A stretch of 64,000 bases of DNA from a virus. Below the pieces are notes generated by a model. The model saw nothing but the letters and a program-made list of their open reading frames with translations. It made no database searches and was not told the DNA's origin. Positions 1,025 through 44,477 of this stretch are shown one piece after another. Every line of letters starts with the position of its first letter. Positions within the stretch are counted from its first letter, which is position 1. The stretch spans positions 18,176-82,175 of IMG/VR virus record IMGVR_UViG_3300029906_000004; one strand, 5' to 3'. The translations under genes were made by a program, and so were the position numbers.

Positions 1025-2919
1025 TGGCAGCAAATAGATTTGATTAGGCAGCGGAAATGCCTATTATTAATACTTATGTACCCATAGATTTTAAGAATCT
1101 GTATATGATTGGAGCTACTTAGAAGGCTGCTGTAGATTAGGCAATAGCGGATATTGGCACAGCTGTATAGACTTTTGGGGAATTCAGATCACCGTCTAGA
1201 ATAGATACAGAAAATTATTATAAATTGACTCTGGGTCAAATGCAGGATCTCATCAATCAGTCCTCTGCAAACCCTGATGCTATGAAAGATGCCGGTTTTA
1301 GAGCTAAATTTTATAGTAAACTCAATAGTTTAGACTACGCAAGTCTTAGTTAGCTTAAAGAGAGTGCAGATAATCAAAGAGCTGGTTTGAGGATGAGAGC
1401 TGAAATGGAAGCTAAAGGTCTTTATAAAAACAGTCCTTATTGGGATAAGGCTAATATTGAAAATTATGATACTCTCGGAACCGGTAAAGTATTTTCAGAC
1501 ATTACTCCTACTAGATGGATGTCTGCAAACGAATTATCCAATCCTTACTTTGATAATTTACAACCTAGTTCTTTAGGCCCGGTGTGGTAGGATGGGGTAA
1601 AATATAATAGAACTGGTATTACTTATGATACTCTATACGGAATAGCAGATGCAAGATTTAATGATTTGGTGTCTACTCCTCAAGGATAGGCCTACTATAA
1701 TGAAATATTGGATAGAGTAGGAGGAGATACTAGTGCTGCTAGACAAGCTTTTGTAGGTATGATAGCCGATTCGTAGAGAGATAGAATACGTAATGTAGAT
1801 ACAGTTGATCCTGCTTGGTTAGCTTAGTTAAGAGCTAATGCATCGCGCAGTGGATCTGTTGACACTGTGTTTGCTACTCCGACTAGATTAAGATTTATAA
1901 GAGAAGGTAATTTACGAGTAGCTCAACGTAATCTCAGGAATAATACTACTGAAGCAGAGATAAATCAACATAACGAACAACAGGCTCTATTAGAAGATAA
2001 TTTTGCAAACGCTTACAGTAAGTATAGATCTAATCCAACTGAGGAAAATCTAGTAGAAGCCAAAAGAGCTTAGAATGCAGTCTATTTAAATCAAGGTAGG
2101 TTTTTACTAGAGAATAATCGTAAAGAGATAGATAAGCAATTTAAGACCGTAACTGGTAGATCTGTATACGACAAGTTCCCAGAAAAAATGAACCATAGAG
2201 ACTATGTTATAGGAGTAAATAAGGCATTATCTAGTGTAGAGAATGACATAGCGTTAACTGGTCAAGATAAGCTTATAACAAATTTAGGAGCTCTGCCGGT
2301 AAATATTGTAGACGAAGGAAATGCTACTAAACAAGCATTTCAATTTAATACTTCAGCTGGTTTTGTGACTCCAGAGAGAATAATGCAAATGATCACAGAC
2401 CCTACTGGATAGAATATTCCTGTAAGAGATGTTAGAAGAGGTACATGGTGGTTAGATAGTGAGAGTTTAGGTTTTGAAAACAATCTTACAGCAGGATCTT
2501 TTGGTACTACTCAATTTATTCCTGATAATAAAATTATACAAGTTAGTCCAGATGTATATGCAATTAAAGGTAAAATAAGGCTGAGTAGAGATGAAGTCGA
2601 GAATGTATTGGGTACTGGTTCTTGGTTCTCTAGATCGTCTGATCAAGGAGCTAAGGGTATAATCGGTTCTCAAAGAACTGATGATGTTCTAAGAGGAGCA
2701 TATAATATGAAAGAAGTAAAGGAAAAATCTGGTGATGACGAGGTTACCTACTATGAAATGGATAGTTATAGATTGTTACCCTCTGTTACTGAGAATCCTG
2801 AATGGTGGACTGCCTCTGAAACAGGTTGGGCTAATACAGATTCATATGGCGGAATAGGTAGTGCGTCTATGGCTAAAGACGCCTTTGGATCTTCATCTCG
2901 TCTTAATCTAGGTTATTAA
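1024..2919 (+). CDS. crAss-type large virion/cargo protein (~631 aa), TAG-recoded
   Basis: ATG overlaps the previous stop (TAATG). MAANRFD(TAG)AAEMPIINTYVPIDF start. Track fragments 1387, 1867, 2188 and 2608 are all in this frame; ends TAA. Confidence 0.8.
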
Positions 2920-2933
2920 TTAAAAAGAATATT

Positions 2934-5900
2934 ATGCAAGATATATTAAATTCTATAGACGAACGACACGCTCTATATAATGCATATGCTACCCCATAGG
3001 TAGATCCGTGGGCGTATGTAAGAGAATTATAGTATGCACCTACTGGTCAAGCTCCTGATAATTATAATCCTAGTGATTATCTTTCTAGTGCTTATTATAC
3101 TTGGCAACGTAATCGTCAAGAGAGTATAATGAATGGAGCTTATGGCGATTATACTATGCTAGACTAGGATTCATAGACTTTAGATAATTTGCGTAGTTAT
3201 CTAAGCTCTTAGAATGCTGAATCTGATCCTCAATATATTACTGCTTTCAATACGGTAATGAACGAGGAGATGAACGACAGTTCTATCAATAATAGAATTA
3301 AATCATACCTACAGAGTAATAGGTATGATTTAGCTATTAGTGAGATTAATCGTCAATTAGACGAGTCTGCTAATGCAACAGACTCCAACACAGGAGCGTG
3401 GAAGGATGATAGCACGTTAGCTGCTAGAAAATCTGCAGCTTTATTTAAAGCAGATGTAGCTAGATAGGAATTAGATGAATATGATGCTAAAGTAGATCCT
3501 TATTTTAAGAAAAAGGAGGCTACATAGGAATTTGATTTTACAGACATCGATACTTATCTGTATAAACTTCCTGGTCTACTAGGTTCATCTGCTGCTACGA
3601 TAGAAGCAGATATTGCTACTACAGCTGGTTCTTGGGCAGCTGGAGCTAGTATTGGTGCTGCTATAGGTGGTCCTATAGGAGTTGGAGTAGGAGCAGTTGG
3701 AGCAGGAGCTGTAGCTATCGCAGGTAACTTATTTAGCAGAGATGCAGATTCTAAAATGGAAGTGTATACTAACTATAAAGATTCTGTAAAGAAACAGTTA
3801 CAAAAGGACGGCATAGATAAGAAGATACTTGCAGATGCTAAATCCGTTATGAGGGAATCCGGTCAGTATACTGAAGAATAGCTTAATGATGATGAGTTTA
3901 TATACGATCAGATACTTACGGATAGAGTGAAGATAAACGATAACCAGCTTAACAAAGCTAAGATAAACAATAGGGATGGTCTTAAATCTCTATACTTAGA
4001 TAATATGGCTCTATCTGCTTCGGATGTAGCTCAAACTATGATTGAGGTAATGCCATTTGGTTTTGGTAAGATCGCTAAAGCCATGAAACTAGATAAACTT
4101 GCTGCTCCTCTTGGAAAATTCAGACAAGGATTATCTAAACGTATTGACGATGTAGTTGCATACGGATTAGATAAGGCAGATGATCTGTCTACTCTTACTT
4201 GGAGAAGAGCAGTTAAAGATCTAGGCGGTAGGATGCTAGTATCTAGTTTTATGGAAGGTGCTGAAGAAGGTACGTAGTATATTAAAGGACAGAACTACAT
4301 CAACGGAAATTATGATAAAGACGCAAATATTGTCGAAAGGTGGTTGGATAATACTGTTGACGGAGCTAGATCTATATTTGCTGCATTAACTCCTTGGGAT
4401 CCTATCTACTCTACCGATAAAGAGTTCATGGATAACTTTAAAGGTGGTATGTTGTTATGCGGTATAATGACTGGTATATACGGTGGAGCTACTATTACAG
4501 TCAATACAGTCAATCAGATGAAAGTAGATAGACTTATTTCTAGCTTATATGCTGAAAATATGGAGGCTAAAGATAGAGTAAGAAAGGACATGCTTTATAG
4601 TGGTTCAGCAGGTAGTAGCAGATTCGATAGAGTAGATCAATCTTTTGATAATTTAAAGACACTAGGTCTGGACGGTATTACTGAGCAAGAGATAGAAGAA
4701 GAACGTACTAGAGCTAATTAGATTAGAAATATACGTAATTCTTCTGTTACTTTATCTGGAGCACGAAAGATTAATATAGATCCTCGTACTAGAGAATATG
4801 ATGCATATGTGGCTCTTACTAAGAGATACTACGATGTATACGACGATACCTTTAAGAATTACCAATCTTCAACGAATAAAGTATCTGAAATATTAAACTC
4901 TGATGAAACTAATAGATATGTTAATGCTTTATCTGAAGAGTTAAAAGATAAAGGTTATGAAACTACTTCGGAAGAAATTAAGAATTTAATTCTCAATAAA
5001 GCTACATTAGATACATACAATTTAATGTATGAACAGTTTGATAAAGATGGATCTATATCGAAAGATATACAAGATAATCTTAATTATCAGACCAATCAGG
5101 CCGATTTGAATAGTTTTGCTCAGATTATAGACAAGAATAGAAAAGAGATAGAAAAGATTCAAGGTCCGTTTAAAGCTCTTCTTAAAGTATTAGAGACCGC
5201 CGGAATATCTCAAGATAGGTTATAGGTTCCGGCTAATTAGGAAGATTTGTAGAAGGCTATTTACGCTCAAATAGGAGCTAAGATTGCATTTGATAGAGCT
5301 GCCGCAGACAATGAGCTTTTTCACTCTGATGAAGAAAAAGAGATTAAGGATAAGATAAATCAATATCTTGATACTGAGAGAAGAGATAATGAATATGTAG
5401 CAGATCTAGATGACTTAAATGAAGGTAGAGATATTAATAGAGCTAACGAAGATGGGAAAGTAATAGAACCTCCTACTATAGATAGTCCTGTTACTCCTGA
5501 GCCTGAACTTGTATCCCCTACTCCGTCACCTTCTCCAGCTCCAGCACCTGCTGCAGTAGAAACTAAGCATGAAACAGAAGAGAATAAAACAGTTGATAAA
5601 ACCCAACATATCTGTCCAGTGTGTGGTAAGCCTATTGATTTCGATTATAATACACAGAAAGGAGTATGCCCTCAGTGTCATACCGATTTGGGTATATATG
5701 TGGATATTAACAATCTAACAGAAGAAGAAGCTAAAGAATTATTAGACGAATTAAATGACCCTAATTCTAAATTATATAATCCTCCTCCAGCTCCAGCACC
5801 TGCTGCAGTAGAACCTGAGTAGAAATAGGGATCTGTTGTAGTAGATCAGTCTAGTGAAAATGAACAGAATGGTTTTGTTAATCAACAGTTAACTCAGCAA

Positions 5901-8900
5901 TATCAAGATGAACTTAATCGAATTTATTCTATTAAAAATGACGATGAATTTGAAAAAGCTGAGAAAGAATTCTCTAATACTCTTCCAGAAGAATACTCTA
6001 CTAAGCTTGTTAACAATGTACCTTCAATATATAATACAAAAAAAGATTATGAATACCGAGAAACTCATGTTCCGGAAGGTCAAATAAATAGGTATAATCA
6101 AAGTGCATTAAACAGTACTCCGAGAAAATTTAAAGTAGGAGATAAATTATAGATTGAACGAGAAGGAAGTTATCCTATAGCAACTGTAACTGAAGTTTCC
6201 GATGATGGTACAATATCGCAAGCTGTGGATGAAGCTGGTTATGTTTTAATAGATAATGGCGCTATTACTACAGGTCTTCCTTAGAGAGTATCTACAGAAT
6301 CAGTTGAATTAACTAAGACTAGATAGAAAGTAAATAAGCTTAGAGAAGATGTATCTGAAATAGAAAATGGTCATGTAAGACTTAAGAAAGGTACTAATGC
6401 TAGAGAAGTATACGATCTTGCTTCAGACGCAATTAGGAATGACTTTATGACTCGTCATCCTAATGTTACTTAGTACAGAGAGTATGTTGCTACTAATGAG
6501 TTGGATAGTCAAGAAGGTCAACAATATGATTTATTACAGAGTATTGTTGATACTAGAGACCGTATGGAAGAAGAAATTCTTACAAACGGTAATACTAACC
6601 GAGCTAGAGGACTACAAGGTTATTTACGTAGATTAGTAAATGACTACAATGAAGTAGTTGCATCTAATTAGAGATAGCAAGAGTAGGCTAAGGAAGAAGC
6701 TACGAAGAATCCTGCTCCCATTACTGATAATGAAGCAGAACCTGTTCCTCCAGTTAAATCTGAAGAAACTCAACCCGCTAAAGTAGAAACTCCTGACTTA
6801 ACACAGATACTCGGAGATTGGTTAGGAGAAGGGGTTGCAGAAGGTATGCAAGCTGGTGCTCAACCACAGCAACCTGTACAATAGCCTGAAGCAGAACAAC
6901 CTACTCAAGAACAGCCTATAGTAGATACTCCTCTTACTTATGATAATAGAGTTGATCCTTACTCACATGAGATCAATTATAGATTAAATAAAGATGGTCA
7001 ACCTATACCTTTCCAAGGTATGGAAGAATATCTGAATAATGAAGCCTTATCAGAAGTATCTACTAATCCTGATTTCATCAGTACAGTGTTGCCTAACGCA
7101 GAAGTAGTAGTAAGACCGTATACTAACGATAAAGGTTAGACTACTCCTGCAATTTATGTAATATTGCCATATAAAGGTAAGAACTATATAGCATCTGTAC
7201 AAGAAGTTGAGAGTTTATAGGGATATCTGTATAAGCGTAGAGATCCTCTTCCTTATGATTAGATTTAGTTGATACTTACTAATTTACAGAATCTGAGGAA
7301 TAAAGTATTAGAACTTAATAAGCAAGTACAAGCTAATCCTAATCTTAAAATTGTTCCTACTGTTATAAGGTCTACTAATGGTCAGTATATTAATGAGAAG
7401 AATCCAGATAATAGTCCTAAAAATCGTAAGTTAACAGAATCGGCTCATTAGGTGGTAAAAGACCCTTATGAGATTACTCCTGAAAATACACATGTTGGTA
7501 TTACTACAGGAAATAGAAGTAATGCTACAATTAGATATAAAGGTAGAACTATATCTGCTAGAGGTGCTGCGTTAGGGCAACCTATGTGGATAATAGAAAC
7601 TCCTAGAGAAGATGGAGGTACTGATACTAAACGGGTAAAGTTAAACTATCCTGATTTTAAGAATGATCCTGAGATGGTAGACTTTATTATTGATCTACTT
7701 GTTAATCCTTCTAATAATTATGTAGATAGAAGTGGAGTATAGACTGGCATAGATACCAAACAATTATTAAGTTTCTTAGTGAATTTTGGTACACATACAG
7801 CAGTTAATCCGAACGATCTTGGATTAGACCAGAGTCAGATAGATAGATTACTGGCTAAACGTTTCTACATTAATGAGAATAATCAACTTATATTAGGTAG
7901 AAATGCCTATAATATTGGAGATATTATTTCAGATCCTACGGTTAGACAGACAGTAAAGGATTACATAATGTAGAATTTCCATCCTGCTATAGATGAATTT
8001 GGACTAAGTACGTAGTACATCGGAGGTGATACATAGTCTCTAGTATAGAGACCCATGTTCAGACCTGCAGCAGCTATGCTTAGAACAAGTAATGTGGATA
8101 AGATTGTAATGATACCAGGGAGATTAGAATTTACTCTAAAGGACTTTGGTATTGTTACAGATAGTAATGGTAGACGTAGATAGGATGACAAACATCCTAA
8201 TGGTATTAGCATACTAGGGTGGTATGTAAAACAAGGTATTCTATTGACAGATATATCGGATAAACTAAAGAATGCTAATCTGTACATTGACGACGTTAAA
8301 CTAGTAAATAAAGACTACATACCTAATTTACAAGAAGCTACTCAACAAGTTAAAGAAACTGTAGATAACTCTAATACCGTTGAAGTACCTACTATGGATG
8401 GTGGTACTAGAGTAATAGATATTAACTCTATGTTATCTTTACTAGACGGTAAGAAAAAAGGACCTAATATGGTATCTGAAGAACGTTATCAAGAAGGTCT
8501 TCTTGTTAATGAAGCAGATAGAATGAATCCTAAACAGGCTACAGAATGGTTGCAGAAGACTCTAGGTATTACTCCTGAAATAGTACAGTCTGTAATAGAT
8601 ATTACTGAAGCAGGTCAAGCTGTAGTTGGTAGAGTAACAGAAGATTCTATACTATTATCTGAACTAGCTCCAGAAGGCGCTGAGTATCACGAAGCTTGGC
8701 ATAGAGTATCTCAATTATTAATTTCTCCTAAGAAAAGAGATAGACTGTACAAACAGTATAGGAGAAAACATAATAGTACTCAGACAGATCAGTAGATAGA
8801 TGAAATGATGGCTGAGGACTTTAGAAGGTTCTAGTTAGAAGAAGCATAGAATTATAACTTTGAAACTAAGAATTGGTTTAGGCGAATATGGGATTTCATA

Positions 8901-16532: not shown

Positions 16533-19500
16533 TGAATATAAAATGTCCAAATAAAACTCTTCCTGAATGGAAGGAACTAGTTGAAGCGGTTGGTGAAAAT
16601 AGCGCCTACTATCTTTGGGATTAGAATAACGGTTATGGCTTAGATCGTGCTCCTAATGGAGCACTTTCTAAGTTATTTTCAGACCTTCTGAGCCATTATA
16701 ATGGTGATAGGAATGCTGCTATAGCAGCAAAGGCTAAAGTGTATTCAGAAGCCTTTAAAAACTGGTTTGGAGATTGGTTATCAGATGATAAGACTAGTGT
16801 ATCTAAAGTAGTAGATGAGAACGGGGAGCCTTTACTTAGTTCAGTAATTAGTAATTAGGACTTATTATAGTGGTTACAGAATAATCCTGTATAGATAACT
16901 CCAACTACATTTGATCCTTCGATTATACGTTAGATAAGTGATACTTATGAACACATTCAAAAAGGTCTCAAAGATCGTCTAAAATCTGTTAAACGTTATT
17001 CTACCAAGAATCCTAGGCTGTGGAATCAATTATCTACTGTAATATCTCAGTTAGCTAACAGTGAAGCGGAATAGGGTATCTTATAGTTCCTATAGCATAT
17101 ATCAGATACTATTAACGATGCTATTAAATTCTTACAGAAGCCTATAGATGAAATTAATGCTAAACAGATAAGACAATTGTCTTAGGACTACGTAGGATTC
17201 TATAAACCTCTTCTAGATGATATAATTTATCTATTTGATACTACTGATATATTTAAAGACTTACCTAATTATGTGGAACTACAAAGGAATGCTTATAGAT
17301 TGTCTACTGAAATGGATTAGGTCTATAATAGATTTGTCCATTTACTTAAGGCGAAAGGTATATCCGAACTAGTAAGTTATTTGTAGTCAAATAATGTACC
17401 GTAGTCATATATAGATAAAACTTTAGAATGGCTTAATAACCCTACTAACGATATTAGTATATTCCTTAACTGGTTCGGTATGGCATCTAATAGTAATAGT
17501 ATGGTTACATAGGCTATAGCTAAGATGCTAAATGATACTATAAATTAGACGTAGAGAGAGACTATGTCTAAAGGTATTGAGTTAGTTAAGTTAGCATAGG
17601 CAGCTAAAGAAAAATATGGAGTAGATGTATAGAAGTTGTTATACGAGAGACTTAATGATGGTACATATTCGGGTTATAGAGTAAGACCTATCAATTATGG
17701 TTAGTATAAGAAGGATAAACAATAGTATCTGGATAAATTAGCTAATAAGTTAGGTATAACTAAAGACAAAGAAGGTCATTATAACTTACCTAATGATGAA
17801 GCTATCCAAAAGAAATGGTTTGATGGTATTAATAAGTTTTATTCGGAGAGAGTAAATAGAAGATTTACTTCTGAATATTATACTACTAGAAATAGAATGT
17901 TATCTGTTAAGACTAGAGAAGCAATAGATGAAATACAGGATTACATAGATTCTATTGTATCTAGAGTAACTAGAGATGGTATTCAACACGATGAAGAACT
18001 CACTACATCTGAGTATTAGCAGTTACTTATGCTTAAGAGATAGAAACAGTTATTAGCTAATAGATATAACTTAGATGGAAGTATTAAGACTGGTGATGAT
18101 TTGCTAATAGCTAATGAACTATCTGCTTTTAATGAAGAAGTAAATAAGAATGTAAGTAGAGAAGTAGACTAGGAAAGATATGATAAAGATTATAAGGCTA
18201 TAGTAAAGCAATATGGTAGTAAAGATGATCCTAGAGTTAAGTTATGGGTATATAGAAATACTGTTACACGCTATAATTAGGCGTTTTACGACCGTTTAGA
18301 TAGACTAAACAAGACTCCATAGTCTGATTTATATAAAGAGCTTGTACAACGCCGTAGAGAGCTTACGTAGCTATTTAAAGATCCTGAAACTGGCTAGATA
18401 AATGTTGATATGTTATCTGATGAATAGAGAGCAATGCTTCTACAATTGGATAAAGATATAGATGCAGCCAGAACTTATTCTAGCAAAGAAGAAGATTCTG
18501 ATAGTTTTGGTAGTTTTGCCGAAGTAGTGTATACTTAGAAGTATTATGATGATGCTAGAGCTGCTCAAGCAGCCGGTTCTACTTAGTATCAACAATGGTA
18601 TGAATAGAATCATTACGAAGACCAGAGAGGTTATATGAAACCTGCTAGGTATTATACTGTATTAAGGCCTAAAGACTCTGTAGCTGACAGATATACTGAA
18701 ACAGTGCCTACTGGTAGATATACTAAAATAGATCCTACCTCTAATTGGTATAATCCTGATTATGATAATAACGGTCCTGCAATATAGCCTAAAAAGAAAT
18801 ATTATGACAATAGTAAGGCTTATAATGAAGTAATGAGTAAACCTGAAGTAAAAGCTTTGTACGAAGCTATTGTGGATACAATGAATCAGGCAAACTCGTA
18901 TATACCGTTCTTAAATACGGCTGATGATGGTAGAATGTCTTAGATGCCAGCTAGATTTGCACAGGTATGGGCTAGAATGACCGGTATTACTGATAGATTG
19001 AAGTATGCAATTGATGAAGTAGTTACTACTTAGGCTGACGATTTTGACTATGTAGAAGAATTTGCTACAATGCCTAATGGTGATCCTATTAAAGTAATAC
19101 CTACTAGATTTATACAGATGTTAGAGAATCCTAATATTATATCTACAGATGCAGTTACAGCTACCATTGCTTACTATAATATGGCTGTTAATTTTAAGAA
19201 TATGTAGGAGCAATAGGACAATATTGAACTAATGTTAGGATTACTCAAAGGTATTACTATTAGAAATAAAAAAGGTACAGTACAACCTGGTAACAGTAAT
19301 CTATATAAGTAGGCTCAATTGTTAGTAGATAGGCTAATGTATGGTAGAAACATGAATTAGGTAACTGCTAATGTATTAGGTAAAGAGATAAATATAACCA
19401 AAATGGCTACTTTATTACTTAGTTAGATACGTAAAGTTAATCTATCTGGTAATATTTGGTCTATTGGTACTAGCTTCTTTACCGATTCTACTTATACTAC

Positions 19501-32792: not shown

Positions 32793-34730
32793 TTATGTAA
32801 ATAAATTTAATTGTCTTGGTTGTAATTCTTCAATTATCTTAAGAGCTTCCTTAAGATAATATCGATAATTTATCTTACGTTCTTCAATGGGTTTATTATC
32901 AAAATTGTTTAGAATAGTAACACCAGAGGAAACAAGCATATTTTGATATGCTCTAACTCCTTCATTATCTTTCCATTTCCATAAGTATCCACCATCTGTA
33001 GATGCATAGAAACGGTTAGTTCTCTGTTGTTCTTTACTTAGATATTCAACATGCCATTGTTTACCAGTTTTTTCAGACATAAGAAATTTCTTAATATCTT
33101 TACAATTATAAATTGTATATTTAACTGGAATGCCATCTGCAAAGTATTTAATTATTGCTTCTGGTATTATCTTAGGAGTAAGTCCTTTACCTAATTTAAC
33201 TTCAGTAATAAATATACCTTTAGTCTTAATTAGTTTAGGATCTTTACTTTGACTATACCCTTCTTTAATAGCGATATAGTCGTTAATGGCATATTGATAC
33301 ATGGCTTCAAAACGATCTTCTTCGAGAGTAAGTTTAGTAAGTTGTTCCCAATCTTTACAGATTTGTTGATATTCTTGCAACTTATTCTTCTTAACTACTA
33401 CAAATAGACCATCTGTATTAGCTTGTACTATTCTACATTGAATCTGCGTAAGTTTTTCAGCTAACATAAGTAATAGTAATTGACCGTTTATACGAATCTT
33501 CATTACTGCTTCAGGACTATAGCAGAAATTATGTTCATTCTGTAAGTTACCTGATAATCCATTAAGAGCAAGTTTTAATGTCTCATTCTTAACTTTATTA
33601 CCGTTATGTTTAGCTTCTATTCTTTCATCTTTAATTTGCTTATATACTTCTAGAAATTCAGGTCCCAAATGCTTGGGATAAAAACCATATTCGATAAGCA
33701 TTGATGGATATAGACTAGCTACGTCTACATCAACTAGTATTTCATCTTCTTTAGGAATAATTATTTCAGGATCGTTTTTACTATGGATTCCTCCTACTCC
33801 TATAGTATATCGTAAGCCATCAAATATAAAGTTATTTTCATAACCTTTTCTACCAGGAGATACTATTTGTTTTTTCATATCTTCTAGTACGTTTTGAAGA
33901 ATAGGAGAATCATACTTAATAAATGGTAAGATTATATTCTTTAAAGGAATATAATCCATTGGAGATCTTAGATCTTTAATGTCATTCCAGGTTAATCCAG
34001 TTTTCTCAAGATATTTTTGAGTTAGGATTTTCATTCCAATGTTTACTCCATCTTTACTAAGTACTCTTACTCCATATTCATCTTCAATAGCTATACGTAA
34101 ATCAATGTCTTTCTTACATCGATTTAATAATTCTGTAGTAGATTCAATATCATTTATATTATATTGAATCATACTATCAAAATCTTCTATAGGTAGAGGT
34201 TTATCCCAATCTGTGACAAATTCTTGTACATTAGGATATTCCATAGTTACTTGTAGTTCTTTTAAGCCCACTCTTAATTTACTACTATATAACATTGTAA
34301 GTAAATCAAATGTGTCAAACCATATTTGATATTTCCAATGTTTCCATGCATCTATATTATCTTCAGTAGAGGTAGTTATAGTCTTACTCATACTGAATAA
34401 AGATTCACATATAGTAGCTACATTATATTGTAGAAGTTTCTCTTCATACTCTATAATGTAATTAATAATAGGATTATCATAGTGAAGATTATTATAGCCA
34501 CAGAATATATAATTACTTGTTATGGAAACTCCTGTAGTATAATAATCTCCCCATGATATAGGTTTATTAACCTGCTTAAAGTATTTAACGATCTCTCTTA
34601 ATTGATTCTTTCTAGGTGATATCTCAAAAGTAGTAATATCACCTGTTTCACTGTTCTTTATAGAACAATGAAATATATTATGAAATACTTCTATATCGAA
34701 TACAAGTACTGTTTTTCCTCGTATTTGCAT
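32793..34730 (-). CDS. polB: Family B DNA polymerase
   Basis: Exonuclease FDIE; DVDVASLYPS; KLALNGLSG; ANTDG. Confidence 0.92.
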   Translation of the reverse strand: MQIRGKTVLVFDIEVFHNIFHCSIKNSETGDITTFEISPRKNQLREIVKYFKQVNKPISWGDYYTTGVSITSNYIFCGYNNLHYDNPIINYIIEYEEKLLQYNVATICESLFSMSKTITTSTEDNIDAWKHWKYQIWFDTFDLLTMLYSSKLRVGLKELQVTMEYPNVQEFVTDWDKPLPIEDFDSMIQYNINDIESTTELLNRCKKDIDLRIAIEDEYGVRVLSKDGVNIGMKILTQKYLEKTGLTWNDIKDLRSPMDYIPLKNIILPFIKYDSPILQNVLEDMKKQIVSPGRKGYENNFIFDGLRYTIGVGGIHSKNDPEIIIPKEDEILVDVDVASLYPSMLIEYGFYPKHLGPEFLEVYKQIKDERIEAKHNGNKVKNETLKLALNGLSGNLQNEHNFCYSPEAVMKIRINGQLLLLMLAEKLTQIQCRIVQANTDGLFVVVKKNKLQEYQQICKDWEQLTKLTLEEDRFEAMYQYAINDYIAIKEGYSQSKDPKLIKTKGIFITEVKLGKGLTPKIIPEAIIKYFADGIPVKYTIYNCKDIKKFLMSEKTGKQWHVEYLSKEQQRTNRFYASTDGGYLWKWKDNEGVRAYQNMLVSSGVTILNNFDNKPIEERKINYRYYLKEALKIIEELQPRQLNLFT

Positions 34731-34749
34731 ATTATAGATTACTAGTTAG

Positions 34750-34821
34750 TGATCCTACCACGACTCGAACGTGGATATACACCTTAGAAGGGCGTTGTTC
34801 TATCCGTTGAACTATAGGACC
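34750..34821 (-). tRNA. tRNA-Arg(TCT)
   Basis: Full cloverleaf GGTCCTA...CT-TCT-AA...TTCGAGT...TAGGATC-A. Confidence 0.92.
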
Positions 34822-35978: not shown

Positions 35979-36119
35979 ATACTTTTTGATTATTATTTGA
36001 TAATTAAAATAGTATATTAGGACATTTACCTGTGTGCCTATAGCTCTATCCAAAGAGTAGCTTTTATTATTTCAAGCTGGGCTTATTAACCTTACGGTCA
36101 TTATCTATAGGCATATTAG

Positions 36120-36200
36120 TAGCACTGATGGGACTTGAACCCACACGCATTTCTACACTTCGTTCTAAGCGAAGCCTGTCTACCATTCCAGCACAGTGCT
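36120..36200 (-). tRNA. tRNA-Leu(TAG)
   Basis: AGCACTG/CAGTGCT acceptor stem, CT-TAG-AA loop, long variable arm, TTCAAGT T-loop. Confidence 0.92.
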
Positions 36201-36354: not shown

Positions 36355-36870
36355 TTAATCTTCAAAAAGATGAATAGCAATTGGTATAGATCCCCCACCA
36401 AGATCTACATAAGCTACGCCATCACCTTTTCGTTTGCAAGTTCCACGTTGCTGTGGTTCTTCATCAATCAATTTAAGTTTGTTCAACTTGTAATCGCCTT
36501 CTGTTACACCTAGAAATGCGTACATTACAAATCGATCAATTACACTCTCGTAATCCTGTTTTTCAATAGCATTACGAATTACTTCTTCTGTAAGCAATTT
36601 AGTTAAACCACTACCTTTCGGTAAGTAGTTATTAAACGCTTTTACCATGCGAATACAAACTGTTTCAAAGTCTTTTGTGACGGTATCATTAAAAAGCCAA
36701 TTCCACCAATGCTTCTTAGTTCTACCAAAAGTAATAGACCCATCATCATTTACTCTAATAGACTCTGGTATTTCATCATTAGTAAGGACAATAGAATTAA
36801 TTCTCTTATCTTGTAATAATAACGCAAACAGTTTCTTCTTAGGCTCTGATATTAATTGAATCTTTGCCAT
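36355..36870 (-). CDS. Hypothetical protein
   Basis: 171-aa ORF. Confidence 0.7.
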   Translation of the reverse strand: MAKIQLISEPKKKLFALLLQDKRINSIVLTNDEIPESIRVNDDGSITFGRTKKHWWNWLFNDTVTKDFETVCIRMVKAFNNYLPKGSGLTKLLTEEVIRNAIEKQDYESVIDRFVMYAFLGVTEGDYKLNKLKLIDEEPQQRGTCKRKGDGVAYVDLGGGSIPIAIHLFED

Positions 36871-36881
36871 TGTTTAAAGTA

Positions 36882-37439
36882 TTAAGACTGGATATCTTTA
36901 CCCAATTCTTCATAATACCGTTCATTTGCATCAGCCTGCAGCTTGTTAAGATCATTAAGCATCTTAGACAAGGATAACATTTCTTCTGCAACATCATCAC
37001 ACTTCTGTGCTTCAAGAGCATTCAGACGATTTACCTGATCGGTAAGAGTATTGCAATCCCGGAAGAAAATAGGAGTACGACCTACCTCTTTCTTCTCATT
37101 GAACTGAATAGCTTCCTTGATCTTGTCCATTGTCACTTCGCAGAACTTCGCCGGAACAAGCTTGAACTGCAAGGACGGATCATTATTCAGCTCAATTAAC
37201 AATGTAGAATTGTCTGGAGCAACAATAAGCCGAGTAGAGATAATCTCAATCGACTCAATGAAATACTTCATAATTGGCTTGACAAGCCGTAATGGGTTAT
37301 TGTTCTTAATCTTATCGTTGTACTGCAAATCTGCAGGTTCACACTTTACGGTAAAAAGTTTCTTACCGAGAATACCCCAAGTCTCAATAGTTGCCCGATA
37401 CCGACCGATCAGAGCAGGATCAATAGTCTTTGTTTCCAT
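36882..37439 (-). CDS. Hypothetical protein
   Basis: 185-aa ORF. Confidence 0.7.
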   Translation of the reverse strand: METKTIDPALIGRYRATIETWGILGKKLFTVKCEPADLQYNDKIKNNNPLRLVKPIMKYFIESIEIISTRLIVAPDNSTLLIELNNDPSLQFKLVPAKFCEVTMDKIKEAIQFNEKKEVGRTPIFFRDCNTLTDQVNRLNALEAQKCDDVAEEMLSLSKMLNDLNKLQADANERYYEELGKDIQS

Positions 37440-37444
37440 ACTTA

Positions 37445-39470
37445 TTTCTTTTTTGATTTTACAATTGATTTTGTTTGACGAAAAAGTTGGCAGTATTACC
37501 CTTACATGTATCCTGTTCTAATCTTTTAGAACCGCTTTAAAAAGCTTTGAAAGAGGATAGTTTAATTCAATAAACTAGGTAATACTCGCTAATTTTAAAT
37601 TATGATAATGTCTGTAAAAATACGAAAATTGTGTTGTAATATAATGAAACTCACTACTAGATTGTACGATATTTCGTACTCAGCATTCCCCGTAGGACTT
37701 TACTCATTAGACAGATGAGTCAACTGTTCTTCGTTTATTCATTTCTATTACGATAAAATCTGAAATACTTATAGTTATTGTCATATTAGACAGTGCAGAT
37801 TCAACACAGTGATGCTGCACGCACCTTGCCGTACCTTATATCGCGATTAGATGCAATATAAAGAGTCTATCATCAGGACACGATAATCCCTACAGACATA
37901 TAAGCTTACGACACTAATGTGAAGGTTTTTCCCTGTTGAGGAAATTACTAAAGCTCTAATATTCAGAGTCGTGTAATTCTTCCCACGCCTACTCTGCGTA
38001 AATTCACTTCCTGCATTGCGATAAATCCAGGGTTACTATGTAATACATGGTATTTCCAACCATTCAACAGCTATTCCCTAATGAGAGGAATCATAATTGC
38101 CGTCTCAGCGATCACTTAACATATTATGTTGCGCATAATACTTTAGGCGTTTCTTATGTAGCGTATTCTATAATAGCGGGGTGGCTCATATGCTTACGAA
38201 CATACTACCATTGAACTTCCCAATTGTTTTTAAATAGTTAAACATTAATTTACACTCACCTTATTTGTTATAGCTGTTCGTTTCAGCGTAGGTAAACTGA
38301 GCAAATTGTCTTACATTCCGCACTTCTCCAGATCAGGCTGCAATACTCAGGCACTATGTGTCTACCCCTTCAAACCAATTACTTTCATAATACGCTGGAA
38401 TGCGTATACAATTGTAATCCGAGTCTTAGTTAAAGATACTTTGCTTACTTTGACTGAGTTTTATGGGTGGCCTCAGTCCCACCTTTTTGCGTTTCCCATT
38501 TATACACTTATACTAATCATGTATAAAACTATATGTAGACTTTTCGCGGTCTTTATACGCTAGTTAGTTTATGTCCTGGTACAAAGTACGCTAGGTTTAT
38601 AGTAACATTACTAACAAGTTACTTTGTTATATAGTAAACTTCATTTCATTATGCTTCTATAAGAAACACTGTATTAGTTGCAAATACAATCGAAATGTAT
38701 TGCAAGCTGTAAGACACCTAATTTACTTCACAGCTGCTAACTCTAACGTTCACAGCATTAGGCACAAGCTCTACTCTTGCTCCAGTTAATCTGTCATAAA
38801 GCTTATAAACAACATAAGGTCTTTATGGATCATAGCTACTCAGCCATGTCTTGCTTCAATTTCTGCTAATTACTATATAACTTCCTCCTTCATATTACTC
38901 TATTTAAGATTTTGCCCTCCAATCGACAAATTCCCATTCCCAATTGAATCATACACTTATCTACAATATAAGCTTTTAAATAAAGTAAGAACACTAAGGT
39001 AGTATTTCTTTAGCCCAACGGATTGGTTACCGTCCAAACAAGGACGCTTTGGACACGCCCTAGATGCTAGTCGATCTAAAATAAAACATATTACTGGCCT
39101 GGAACGGCACGTGTTTGCATCCTCTTTTGATTTTGCCAGTGATACGACTTAACGGATGCATAAAGAGGTGAACGATACCCCTTCGTATTGTTTGTCTATA
39201 CTCTCTGCTCAGGTATAGTACGCGTCTTTGATTACTTATAATATCGCCAAACGGTTCTCATATTCATAAGGTCATGGGTCATACACGCTCTCCCATTTTC
39301 TTACTAACTTTTCAGCTATATGGTAACTTTATAGCATAGTAAGTTATCATGATATATTTATAGATATTAGTGGTAGCTAATTCTATAACATTTCATCATC
39401 CTGTGTTACCTACGTTACACGGCTTAGTTGGGCTCAAGCAACGAATATCAGTTTATAGCTCTTATATACC
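37445..39470 (-). other. ~2-kb ORF-free, hairpin-rich region; candidate large ncRNA(s)
   Basis: No credible ORF on either strand; many short stems read by eye. Confidence 0.45.
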
Positions 39471-39482
39471 GCTCTACTAATT

Positions 39483-39851
39483 CTAGTTGCGGTCTGCGTT
39501 TATCTTCGGCAGAGTAAGAGGAGCAATATGTTTCAAAAGCTTATGATTGTTAATAAGATCTGGCTTATATATAATCTCTCTTACTTTCTTTTCTATGTAC
39601 ATAGGAACTTCTTTAATTTCTCTCTGTACATTTACTGTAGCATTCTCAGTGTTTCCACTGATTGATACTTGATCTTTCTGTAAATCAATGCTAATAGTCT
39701 TAGGTAAAGACACGTCTGTCTTGGGTACGTCTACCCACCTAATCATAACAGGATTTGCATTCAGATTCTGACTATTGTTATTTACATAACCGATAGTCCC
39801 ACCTATAACTATTGCTAGAGTTATAGCTAACATTTTACTTATCTTCCACAT
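39483..39851 (-). CDS. Membrane-anchored/secreted hypothetical protein
   Basis: Hydrophobic N-terminus. Ends at TAG under code 11; under code 15 it extends to TAA at 39462-39464. Confidence 0.65.
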   Translation of the reverse strand: MWKISKMLAITLAIVIGGTIGYVNNNSQNLNANPVMIRWVDVPKTDVSLPKTISIDLQKDQVSISGNTENATVNVQREIKEVPMYIEKKVREIIYKPDLINNHKLLKHIAPLTLPKINADRN

Positions 39852-39856
39852 ATTGA

Positions 39857-41218
39857 TTATGCAGTATATGCACTCTTGTCAACATACTTAGACAATCGTG
39901 CAATAGGTTTAACATAATACTTCACAATGTCGTTGAGCTTGTCCTTCAGTAAGTTGTCGGAATCACCGTAAACACATACGAGACTCTTACGAATTGCAGC
40001 AGTATTTACTGCAACTTTGTCCTTGCTGTTTGGATAATCTACTACGACTTGTTCTTTCTTGTTTAGAATTGCATCAATAACTTCAGATGCGCAGCCAGCT
40101 GCGATATCGCGTGTTACCAATGCTAATCCGTTGTCCAAAGATAACTGTTTGCCAGTCTTTTCCTTCCAATCCTTCTGATTGGATTCTTCCTTGTAAGATA
40201 AGCAGACTTGCGCAATTTCTGCTATCTCTTGATCGGAATAGTTAGGCAACCACTGGTGCAAAATAGCATGAGCTCCAAAGATAGAATGATCATTGTTCAG
40301 CTTTCCTCTGACCATACCGGTGAGACCGTTAGTTAAAGTAGTTCGCATATCGTTAGATAACAAACTTGCTAATACAACAGATTTTCTTTCATCTTTTCCA
40401 AATCCAAATGCGATCTTACCCCAGTCAAGACCTTTCTGAATATTGTTTCCAATACCCTTACCAGTCTGAGAGAAGATTGCGCGAAGCGTTTTAAGCTTCA
40501 TGTCTTTCGACATATTTACATCAGGTTCTGGAATTTCAGGAACTTCATCCTTTGCTTTTAAGTCTTTCTTTACTTGTTCTTTAACTTCTGGAGTCATAGA
40601 CTCTGAAAAGTTAATAGTTAATTGATTCGGATCACTACTCGGTAATGCTTTCAAACCAATACCAAACATATTACGAGCAAGCTGTTCCATCTGAACAAAT
40701 TGCTCTTTATTTACTTTTACTCCAAGCTGTTGAAGATCGTTTTCAAGCTGAGCATTGTAGAACATGAGCTCTACCATTGCCATAGCATCAAACTGTTTCT
40801 TCATAGCTCTACCTAGTTCTGGAGTAGTTGCTGGATTAGTAACATATTCACCGTGGATCATTTTCATCAAGTCAACAGCGTGATTATGATCAAGACGATC
40901 ACCATTTGCAAGCTTATTCAAGCCTGCAGAAATACTGGGTACTGGAGTTTCATCTTCTTTCTTCTTTTCAGACTCCACTACTTCTGGAGTAATGGGTTCC
41001 TCATTCTTTACTACGGGAGCTTCATCTTCCTTCTTTACAGGCTCTTCAGGAGTCTTTACTGGTTCCTGTACTTGAGGAGGATATTCTCCTTCTTTCTTTG
41101 CTTGTTCTACTACTTCTGCTTCAATAGTTTCTACTTTCTCTTTTTGGTCTTTTGTAATTGTTGCTGTTTTAGTTGCAAGAGTCCTCTTGGGCTCTTTAGT
41201 TTTAGTTTTCTTTGCCAT
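39857..41218 (-). CDS. Hypothetical protein with acidic low-complexity N-terminus
   Basis: 453-aa ORF. Confidence 0.8.
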   Translation of the reverse strand: MAKKTKTKEPKRTLATKTATITKDQKEKVETIEAEVVEQAKKEGEYPPQVQEPVKTPEEPVKKEDEAPVVKNEEPITPEVVESEKKKEDETPVPSISAGLNKLANGDRLDHNHAVDLMKMIHGEYVTNPATTPELGRAMKKQFDAMAMVELMFYNAQLENDLQQLGVKVNKEQFVQMEQLARNMFGIGLKALPSSDPNQLTINFSESMTPEVKEQVKKDLKAKDEVPEIPEPDVNMSKDMKLKTLRAIFSQTGKGIGNNIQKGLDWGKIAFGFGKDERKSVVLASLLSNDMRTTLTNGLTGMVRGKLNNDHSIFGAHAILHQWLPNYSDQEIAEIAQVCLSYKEESNQKDWKEKTGKQLSLDNGLALVTRDIAAGCASEVIDAILNKKEQVVVDYPNSKDKVAVNTAAIRKSLVCVYGDSDNLLKDKLNDIVKYYVKPIARLSKYVDKSAYTA

Positions 41219-41648: not shown

Positions 41649-42200
41649 TTAGTAGTTCTCTTTGACTAATTGTTTTAATCTTCGTCTTGCTTTATTGAGG
41701 TCTGTTCTTACAGTTGCCTCAGGTATAGCAAGCGTTTCAGCTATTTGCTGATAACTCTTTCCTTCTATTCTCATATTTAGCATATCTCTATATTTTTTCT
41801 TTAATAGATTTATGCATTTTAATGTTATATCTACTTCTTGTTTGTAAATATAATCATCTTCAGGACTATATTCTCGTCCATCTAATTGAATAGTAGATTC
41901 GTCATCATCAATATAGCTATTTAATTGTTCCTTCTTATTTCTCCGTATATAATCTATTGCTGTGTTTAAAGTAATAGTCTTTAACCACATTTCAAAAGAT
42001 ATATGCTGAGTATAAGTATCAAGCTTTGTAAATGCTTTTGTAAATACCATAGACACAATGTCGTCTGCAACATCGATATTTTTGACAATCTTAAAAGCTG
42101 TCCACCATATCGTTTCTTTATACGTGTAATACAATTCATTAAAAGCTTTTTCGGAACCTTGTCTAGCTTGCTCTACTAAAAGTTTTACTTCTTCTTTCAT
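41649..42200 (-). CDS. ECF (sigma-24-like) RNA polymerase sigma factor
   Basis: Region 2 (LVEQARQGSEKAFNELY...WLKTITLNTAIDYIRR) and region 4 (GKSYQQIAETLAIPEATVRTDLNKARRRL). Confidence 0.88.
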   Translation of the reverse strand: MKEEVKLLVEQARQGSEKAFNELYYTYKETIWWTAFKIVKNIDVADDIVSMVFTKAFTKLDTYTQHISFEMWLKTITLNTAIDYIRRNKKEQLNSYIDDDESTIQLDGREYSPEDDYIYKQEVDITLKCINLLKKKYRDMLNMRIEGKSYQQIAETLAIPEATVRTDLNKARRRLKQLVKENY

Positions 42201-43933: not shown

Positions 43934-43963
43934 AATTTTGATAATTAACGTTAATAATCTATT

Positions 43964-44008
43964 TGTAGTGTGGGAGGACTTGAACCTCCCTGTATGCCGT
44001 TACACTCC
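43964..44008 (-). ncRNA. Mini tRNA-like element (acceptor stem plus T-arm only)
   Basis: GGAGTGT/ACACTAC (6 of 7 pairs), GGGAGG-TTCAAGT-CCTCCC T-arm, A discriminator, short linker replacing the D and anticodon arms. Confidence 0.6.
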
Positions 44009-44312
44009 AGCTTTCTACGACATTAGCTTAGCCGTTCAGTCTATACTCACGCTACGCGAGAATAGTCTGTAACATAAGTTGTATTGCCACTTATTCGCAT
44101 TCTTAGCCTATTCATTACTGTGTCTGCGGATCAATACCTGTTAGGCCCTCGTAGAAGCCATTTTAAGGCGATTCTAGACACTTTCATTATCATCTAATAG
44201 GAATGTATTACTTTGTGTCTAAAATGTTTTAAACGGCTTAAAATGAGTGGACCTAGGTCGACTTGAACGACCGTCTCCTTCAGGCATATAATGACCTAAC
44301 AGCTAATTTCTC
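44009..44312 (-). ncRNA. ssrA: Circularly permuted two-piece tmRNA: acceptor piece ~44312-44248, intervening segment 44247-44149, coding piece 44148-~44009; tag (A)GNTTYVTDYSRVA
   Basis: GGGCCTA pairs with TAGGTCC-A giving a G3:U70 pair and A73. GAC-GGTCG-TTCAAGT-CGACC T-arm. Inter-piece helices TCC/GGA, TAATGA/TCATTA, GCTAA/TTAGC. AATAAGT-GGC resume context; the tag stop codon lies in a hairpin. Confidence 0.8.
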
Positions 44313-44477
44313 TTAAAAAGGAGTAGAAATTAATCTACTCCTTGGGGTTGACCACCTAGTAGTATAAATCGTGTCCATAGAGCTCTGGCGGAGGCTCTTG
44401 GACTACTACTGTTTTGTTGTCAGCAAACTGACATACATCACAATGAGTTTTATCACATTGTGACGGACAATCGTTCT

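Follow-up and report, generated by a model that had tools for sequence, protein, structure and literature searches.

The interval 37481-39512, minus strand, of a 64,000-nucleotide (nt) stretch of viral DNA (hereafter the window; positions 18,176 to 82,175 of IMG/VR record IMGVR_UViG_3300029906_000004) probably encodes a very large structured non-coding RNA (ncRNA) that is specific to the family Suoliviridae, a reading to which we assign a probability of roughly 0.62. The record is a complete gut phage of 103,003 bp with direct terminal repeats; by DNA similarity it belongs to the crAss-like Suoliviridae and comes closest to Uncouvirinae. That the tract represents an apparently undescribed, Suoliviridae-specific family of very large structured ncRNA, or else a tight RNA array, is strongly supported. 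A preliminary description of this DNA had proposed one very large or several novel ncRNAs between 37445 and 39470. The conservation of the tract, its tract-wide compensatory helices, its minus-strand bias and its lack of any Rfam family bear this out, and the structured element runs slightly past that interval at the 5′ end, from about 37481 to 39512. What exceeds chance here is the absence of open reading frames (ORFs), the conservation and the covariation, and not the density of hairpins in the single sequence.

The tract is not protein-coding. Within the ORF-free gap (37440-39482), the longest ORF under translation table 11 is 85 amino acids (aa) long and lies on the opposite strand, and reading TAG as glutamine, TGA as tryptophan or TAA as glutamine opens no credible ORF, in line with the 2 kb without credible coding sequence (CDS) that the preliminary description had reported. 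Each stop codon is present in 7-29 copies per frame, in all six frames, in the window and in seven relatives. On the sense strand, no stretch of at least 60 columns stays open for at least 35 codons under table 11 in at least four of five lineages. A string of conserved short ORFs, which had been named from the outset as another possible explanation, is very unlikely, no common sense-strand frame of at least 35 codons having been found. Public records leave the tract empty or carry spurious small ORFs in it. RefSeq lists a 53-aa 'hypothetical protein' inside the tract at 4131-4292 of both cr114_1 and cr125_1 (L001 and L002 in our set), which is probably spurious because it overlaps the covarying domain D1 described below and its frame is closed in the window.

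An unannotated gap of 2.0-2.5 kb occupies the same position in four Suoliviridae subfamilies, namely Uncouvirinae (cr114_1, cr125_1, cr115_1), Bearivirinae (cr6_1), Loutivirinae (cr60_1) and Boorivirinae (cr55_1). The tract was present in all Suoliviridae lineages examined. It aligns with cr114_1 and cr125_1 (Aurodevirus) and with cr115_1 (Birpovirus; L003) at 69-71% identity over 89-95% of its length. Nucleotide identity to cr114_1 and cr115_1 is 65-80% in the gap and 51-67% in the flanking CDS, and the flanking 453-aa protein retains only about 40% aa identity; the tract is therefore the best-conserved sequence of its neighbourhood and is under stronger nucleotide-level constraint than its neighbours. 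From 39409 to 37678, nine lineages with otherwise about 50% identity share a series of conserved blocks in unchanged order, and the linkers that separate the hairpins rank with the best-conserved segments. The spacing between D1 and the 3′ module E3 is 1595-1763 nt in 12 lineages (about 50% identical). An invariant 17-mer in the 3′ part was found at 84 IMG/VR loci and a 22-mer at 77 metagenome loci, which dereplicated to about 11 lineages, the metagenome scan contributing one new lineage only. Profile searching with the neighbouring 453-aa protein brought in two further lineages, and a search of IMG/VR loci with the 185-aa neighbour alone returned no relatives.

Dozens of helices in the tract are maintained by compensatory substitutions, in collinear modules joined by invariant single-stranded motifs. 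Among the approximately 14 lineages compared, helices with compensatory changes are spread along the full 2 kb, so that the covariation analysis proposed as a check in the preliminary description came out in its favour, both with RNAalifold and with models of D1, D3 and E3. RNAalifold was applied to three independent lineage groups (g1 to g3), with column-shuffled alignments as the null. The consensus energy of g1 was -821 (shuffled -597 to -638) with 135 compensatory pairs (shuffled 51-75), that of g2 was -998 (about -800) with 145 pairs (86-98), and that of g3 was -999 (about -800) with 141 pairs (77-99). This null is lenient, as a coding control beats it too, and we therefore put the gap and 2,090 nt of upstream coding sequence, both from the same seven phages, through one pipeline. 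The gap reached a consensus energy of -650 against -409 for the coding control, with 258 non-canonical cells against 433. It contained 54 supported helices (363 bp, 136 compensatory) against 33, and 32 strict local helices against 8. The structured locus and its modules, all on the minus strand and given from 5′ to 3′, are as follows.

37481-39512, minus strand: whole structured locus, about 2.03 kb, bounded by the first conserved 5′ hairpin and by the U-run past the terminal hairpin.
39468-39512, minus strand: 5′ hairpins, CUGC/GCAG with the conserved loop GAAGAUAAA and ACCGCA/AGCGGU with a loop that contains ACUAGA.
39239-39415, minus strand: D1, six helices plus invariant single-stranded CUGAA, an AGCGUG loop and GAGAACCG..UGG.
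39116-39221, minus strand: three covarying hairpins, 39221-39194, 39183-39163 and 39160-39116.
38883-39000, minus strand: D2, a long stem (39000-38984/38899-38883) around a variable insert.
38627-38880, minus strand: largest closed domain, with a 12-bp closing helix (38880-38869/38638-38627) and a 170-nt multi-helix core (38863-38694).
38525-38625, minus strand: D3, an H-type pseudoknot and two hairpins, one with loop GCUUUGC and the other with loop CGCRAUAA.
38006-38230, minus strand: conserved block with enclosing helix, GGGAAGUUCAAUGG...CCACCC, then hairpins 38141-38121, 38091-38073 and 38033-38006.
37636-37750, minus strand: E3, a 3′ three-way junction (CAGU/GCUG, ACUCAU/AUGAGU, UCC-UACG-GGG) inside a 12-bp closing helix, with an AAUA-loop hairpin of freely varying stem, the invariant UCUAGUA and the invariant 22-mer AGUAAAGUCCUACGGGGAAUGC.
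37481-37586, minus strand: terminal branched hairpin, outer stem GUAUUACC/GGUAAUAC and inner stem UAUCCU/AGGAUA, the hairpin proper being 37586-37492.

Separate models were built for D1, D3 and E3. The D1 model (R1) covers 14 lineages with 98.1% of cells paired and 22 of 28 pairs compensatory, where slid controls gave 4-10 pairs; outside its training set it matches cr55_1 (107.6 bits), L106 (90) and cr60_1 (80.7). The D3 model (R3), also with 14 lineages, has 98.4% of cells paired and 14 of 18 pairs compensatory (slid controls 2-5). Beyond its training set it matches L170, L177, L181 and L209 (102-105 bits) and L106 (72); a weak match in cr60_1 (27 bits, E about 0.006) is placed collinearly with D1. 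Within D3 the helix GUAAC/GUUAC crosses the helix GUUAG/CUAAC, and the two, each of them supported, make up an H-type pseudoknot. When the pseudoknot is included (alignment A2), 93.8% of cells are paired and 15 of 23 pairs are compensatory, the crossing helix itself being 91% paired with two compensatory pairs. The E3 model (R2, 37640-37740) covers 13 lineages with 95.3% of cells paired and half of its 20 pairs (10) compensatory, against 2-4 pairs in slid controls, and matches L170, L177, L181, L019 and L106 beyond its training set. For D1, D3 and E3, none of 500 shuffles reached the observed percentage of paired cells, the pairs and cells with changes on both sides, or the covariation score; the measure of further pair types was reached by 0, 79 and 2 of 500 shuffles, respectively.

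Compensatory change is found in the other modules as well. In the 5′ hairpins the stems CUGC/GCAG, UCAGA/UCUGA and GUAGA/UCUAC covary; these hairpins are also visible by eye in cr60_1 and were not seen in L055, L036, L060 and L083. The three hairpins at 39116-39221 hold 9, 3 and 6 compensatory pairs, in the order listed, in an 11-sequence RNAalifold alignment, and are also present in the 7-sequence alignment. In D2, the helix 38991-38984/38899-38889 has nine pairs, six of them compensatory, with one bad cell in 98, and the helix 39000-38996/38887-38883 has four compensatory pairs. The closing helix of the largest domain shows eight compensatory pairs with three lineages and seven with 11 sequences, and its core contains eight supported helices (49 bp, 17 compensatory). 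The three hairpins that follow the conserved block are strict and free of bad cells, with 5, 5 and 3 compensatory pairs, in the 7-sequence alignment, where the closing helix of E3 (37750-37738/37648-37636) has six compensatory pairs. All 15 predicted pairs of the terminal hairpin are compensatory in the 11 sequences, and a T-run comes next in most lineages. This hairpin is branched and about 105 nt long, and it is followed by a 7-nt spacer and a U5 run at 37485-37481, 42 nt ahead of the next start codon.

The six stems quoted in the preliminary description are all present, and four of them coincide with compensatory helices: GGTGG/CCACC at 38483-38466, CTATAC/GTATAG inside 39221-39194, GTACGA/TCGTAC at 37679-37664 and ACTCAT/ATGAGT at 37720-37702. 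The other two, GTCCAAA/TTTGGAC and GCTGT/ACAGC, were not seen to be kept in relatives, a weak negative given a display offset of 2 nt.

The pairing signal favours the minus strand, the same as that of the surrounding genes. Supported helices contain 91 G-U against 11 A-C combinations on this gene-sense strand, and 57 against 23 on the antisense strand. A mirror analysis of the antisense strand gave fewer supported helices, and the sense consensus energies are lower; this asymmetry and the lower sense energy fit an RNA read from the minus strand. A scan for sigma-70 promoters found sites no commoner than in shuffles, and neither the Bacteroidetes -33/-7 motif nor the AAC-N-TACGT motif was found upstream of the tract. 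The loop ACUAGA of the 5′ hairpins (39482-39487) contains the TAG stop codon (39485-39483) of the upstream 122-aa ORF. The lack of a promoter motif, together with first hairpins that overlap the end of this ORF, suggests co-transcription with the early operon. As had been proposed in the preliminary description, the tract is thus plausibly co-transcribed with the early arm, given the shared strand, the absence of a promoter motif and the position of the 5′ hairpins over the upstream stop codon.

A search of Rfam 15 gave no match in the gap, with the window scanned at gathering score, 36800-40000 at E ≤ 10, and the gaps of ten relatives. The preliminary description had been unable to match the tract to GOLLD or ROOL, and indeed neither covariance model (RF01998 and RF03087, respectively) matches it even at E ≤ 10. 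The models of small- and large-subunit ribosomal RNA (rRNA) and of RNase P RNA are without match at E ≤ 10. A group I or group II intron was likewise rejected, with no Rfam match at E ≤ 10 and with flanking ORFs that are complete, separate genes, also in relatives. The tract resembles rRNAs, group I and II introns and RNase P RNA in its size class, its many covarying helices and its conserved single-stranded joins, and it differs from introns in having no split host gene around it. Two short likenesses were set aside: that of GUCCUACGGGG to helix 14 of 16S rRNA, where the cUACGg (UNCG) tetraloop is generic and has no Rfam support, and that of AAAGUCC to RNase P, judged generic and without Rfam support.

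Very large structured RNAs beyond rRNA are rare, and each new class (GOLLD, ROOL, OLE) opened RNA biology. Genes for GOLLD and ROOL are frequently found in phages or prophages, close to tRNA genes. An RNA from the tract would be two to three times larger than GOLLD, ROOL and OLE and would exceed the largest known ornate phage RNAs more than twofold in size, and the tract is better conserved than the surrounding proteins. The tract shares with GOLLD its phage location near tRNA genes, and with both GOLLD and ROOL the apparent character of a large, ornate, multi-domain ncRNA; it is about 2.5 to 3.5 times longer than these two and unrelated to them in sequence. GOLLD and ROOL have long-range closing helices and form RNA-only homo-oligomers.

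By context, the closest published precedent is the early long non-coding RNAs of phi14:2, a crAss-like Cellulophaga phage; by kind, GOLLD and ROOL (cryo-electron microscopy in bioRxiv 10.1101/2024.12.08.627333) are nearest. Drobysheva et al. (bioRxiv 10.1101/2020.03.07.982082) reported that transcription of two long intergenic regions of phi14:2 begins early, exceeds that of most genes and lasts into the late phase, and termed the products long non-coding RNAs of unknown function. The phi14:2 gap is an ORF-free stretch of about 1.7 kb on the early-gene strand (NC_021806, L211 in our set, 2905-4601), with transcripts reported from the earliest time point onwards. Like the tract, it precedes the DNA polymerase gene by a few kb and shares its strand (phi14:2 PolB from 9636). 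RefSeq dropped about eight small ORF calls in this interval in 2020. The phage differs in belonging to the family Steigviridae and not Suoliviridae; the models R1, R2 and R3 give noise only on it, and Rfam finds nothing in its gap. No description of the tract RNA was found in the literature, and Yutin et al. 2021 (PMC7886860), describing these phage groups, do not mention a non-coding region. The tract offers a testable target and may be linked to the long non-coding RNAs that phi14:2 makes early in infection, for which no explanation has been given.

We infer the expression, ends and processing of the predicted RNA from sequence features. It would be transcribed as part of the early or replication-gene operon that ends at the DNA polymerase gene, with its 3′ end at the covarying terminal hairpin and U-run, and the folded product would be stable and accumulate, most likely in the form of a single multi-domain molecule of about 2 kb. 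This RNA would act by virtue of its shape, whether as a scaffold, as a decoy or as the RNA component of a ribonucleoprotein, and not through base-pairing to a single target. This proposed behaviour and role draw on analogy with the long non-coding RNAs of phi14:2 and with the ornate GOLLD and ROOL.

Several observations weigh against a single very large RNA. The coding control also exceeds its column shuffles, though more weakly than the tract. Minimum free energy z-scores of the single sequence (-1.86 and -2.53 for the two halves of the tract) are not unusual, and the hairpin density stressed in the preliminary description did not hold, being no higher than chance or background; the CDS of the 453-aa protein (39860-40850, minus strand) has a z-score of -4.87 against 20 dinucleotide shuffles, below those of the tract. 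Covarying stacks spanning more than 150 nt number three in the antiparallel orientation and two in the parallel control, and the long-range helices of RNAalifold shift as lineages are added. As helices beyond 150 nt show no covariation, nothing ties the modules into one fold. The ACUAGA loop at the 5′ end could pair with UCUAGUA at the 3′ end, about 1.85 kb away; both are invariant, and four lineages are without the 5′ motif. In L209, E3 is swapped for unrelated sequence (about 7550-7650) while the remainder is 93% identical to cr115_1, which suggests module exchange. E3 is otherwise the most conserved module and bears the invariant 22-mer. Model R2 does not detect E3 in cr55_1 or cr60_1, and model R3 does not detect D3 in cr55_1. 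The 7-nt spacing between the terminal stem and the U-run is not that of a canonical intrinsic terminator. Finally, no homology was detected to the phi14:2 RNAs, GOLLD or ROOL, so the functional analogy is only an analogy.

The likeliest rival is a string of separate structured RNAs of 50-250 nt each, cut from one precursor like the tRNAs, transfer-messenger RNA (tmRNA) and ribozymes of the operon. We regard it as a serious contender, though the less probable one. The tract resolves into about 32 top-level modules, the largest closed ones being 115-250 nt, and the lack of covariation beyond 150 nt counts in favour of separate RNAs. The exchange of E3 in L209 and its non-detection in cr55_1 and cr60_1, set beside a universal D1, point the same way, and a hatchet ribozyme, tmRNA and tRNAs in the same operon provide a context of RNA processing. 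Against such a string, all lineages examined retain the modules together and in collinear order, and the D1-to-E3 spacing stays within about 10% despite roughly 50% identity between the conserved blocks. The linkers are highly conserved, as expected for tertiary contacts, and no internal tRNA-like element, ribozyme or Rfam match is present that could serve as a cut site. We judge a single multi-domain RNA roughly twice as likely as a string of separate ones. A further step, that one RNA of about 2 kb folds into a single defined particle with its own activity during infection, is more speculative, and we hold it possible but doubtful. Such a particle might work as a cage or scaffold made of RNA alone, as a ribozyme, or at the core of a phage ribonucleoprotein directed at the host translation or RNA-processing machinery. 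If real, it would be the largest structured non-ribosomal RNA known from any virus, and it would occur throughout a phage family that is among the most abundant in animal guts.

A giant structured leader or inter-cistronic spacer, acting in cis and not as a free RNA, is improbable. It would control read-through, mRNA stability or translation of the genes from those of the 185-aa and 171-aa proteins to that of the DNA polymerase. It would account for the strand shared with the flanking genes, for a start inside the upstream ORF and for a terminator-like hairpin 42 nt before the next ATG. However, 2 kb with at least 50 conserved helices far exceeds what known bacterial and phage leaders need, and the conserved cores lie hundreds of nucleotides from both neighbouring genes.

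Still less credible is an element that works at the DNA level, for instance an origin of replication or a site for packaging or recombination, with hairpins formed in single-stranded DNA. The tract does lie among the replication genes, with the DNA polymerase gene 2.7 kb downstream, and compensatory changes would preserve DNA hairpins too. Yet tandem repeats, iterons and notable families of direct repeats were not found, the GC content is 0.356 against 0.336 for the window, hence not AT-rich, and the cumulative GC skew is monotonic and runs straight through the tract. A phage replication origin, which the preliminary description had itself considered as a competing explanation, was rejected on these grounds, with no iterons, no AT-rich element and no skew inflection. 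The excess of G-U over A-C on one strand (91 to 11) fits RNA, and a UNCG-type tetraloop, a pseudoknot and a three-way junction are present. The strand asymmetry, the lack of iterons, the straight skew and the slightly raised GC content argue against a purely double-stranded DNA element. Protein coding by an unrecognised decoding scheme, or as conserved microproteins, has in its favour the 53-aa ORF annotated in cr114_1 and cr125_1 and the recoding of TAG in the late genes of the phage, and can be set aside almost entirely, as the three stop codons are frequent in all frames of all eight genomes, no common sense-strand frame is open for at least 35 codons, and the 53-aa ORF overlaps covarying D1 and is closed in the window.

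The tract is embedded in a minus-strand gene series, which runs from an ECF-type sigma factor through ORFs of 114, 453 and 122 aa to the gap, and continues past it with ORFs of 185 and 171 aa, tRNA-Leu, two ORFs, tRNA-Arg and DNA polymerase. The neighbouring features are listed below.

43956-44339, minus strand: permuted tmRNA, found with ARAGORN, tag peptide GNTTYVTDYSRVA.
41649-42200, minus strand: ECF-type sigma factor (Sigma70_r2, Sigma70_r4_2), kept in relatives; the tract lies about 2 kb downstream.
39483-39851, minus strand: 122-aa ORF, bordering the gap upstream.
36882-37439, minus strand: 185-aa ORF, bordering the gap downstream.
36119-36200: tRNA-Leu, about 1.3 kb downstream of the tract.
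34749-34821: tRNA-Arg.
32793-34730, minus strand: DNA polymerase gene, 2.7 kb downstream of the tract.

The flanking proteins give no clue to the function of the tract. Searches of PHROGs and Pfam with the four flanking ORFs gave no match, and neither did a sequence search of the PDB with the 453-aa and 185-aa proteins. For the 453-aa protein, the protein atlas offers no more than a sub-threshold HD-domain lead (0.81-0.83). Its AlphaFold model (predicted local distance difference test score 72) has no Foldseek match at E ≤ 0.001 and, with VIA-align, only helical-hairpin matches at Z ≤ 6.3. The upstream ORF is annotated longer in cr114_1 and cr125_1 (155 aa against 122 aa), and a TAG-to-glutamine reading, as in the late genes of the phage, extends the 122-aa ORF by seven codons to 129 aa.

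Other structured RNAs occur in the window and its relatives. Rfam tmRNA_permuted matches were obtained in L083 (4233-4467) and L177 (880-1135). RAGATH-9 RNA (RF03146), with no match reported in the window, lies directly upstream of the tmRNA in L170 (1094-1261) and L177 (525-692), at 122 and 143 bits. A hatchet self-cleaving ribozyme at 45620-45732 on the minus strand (96.9 bits against a gathering score of 51) belongs to the same minus-strand operon as the tract, and the relative L083 likewise carries a hatchet ribozyme, at 1297-1421.

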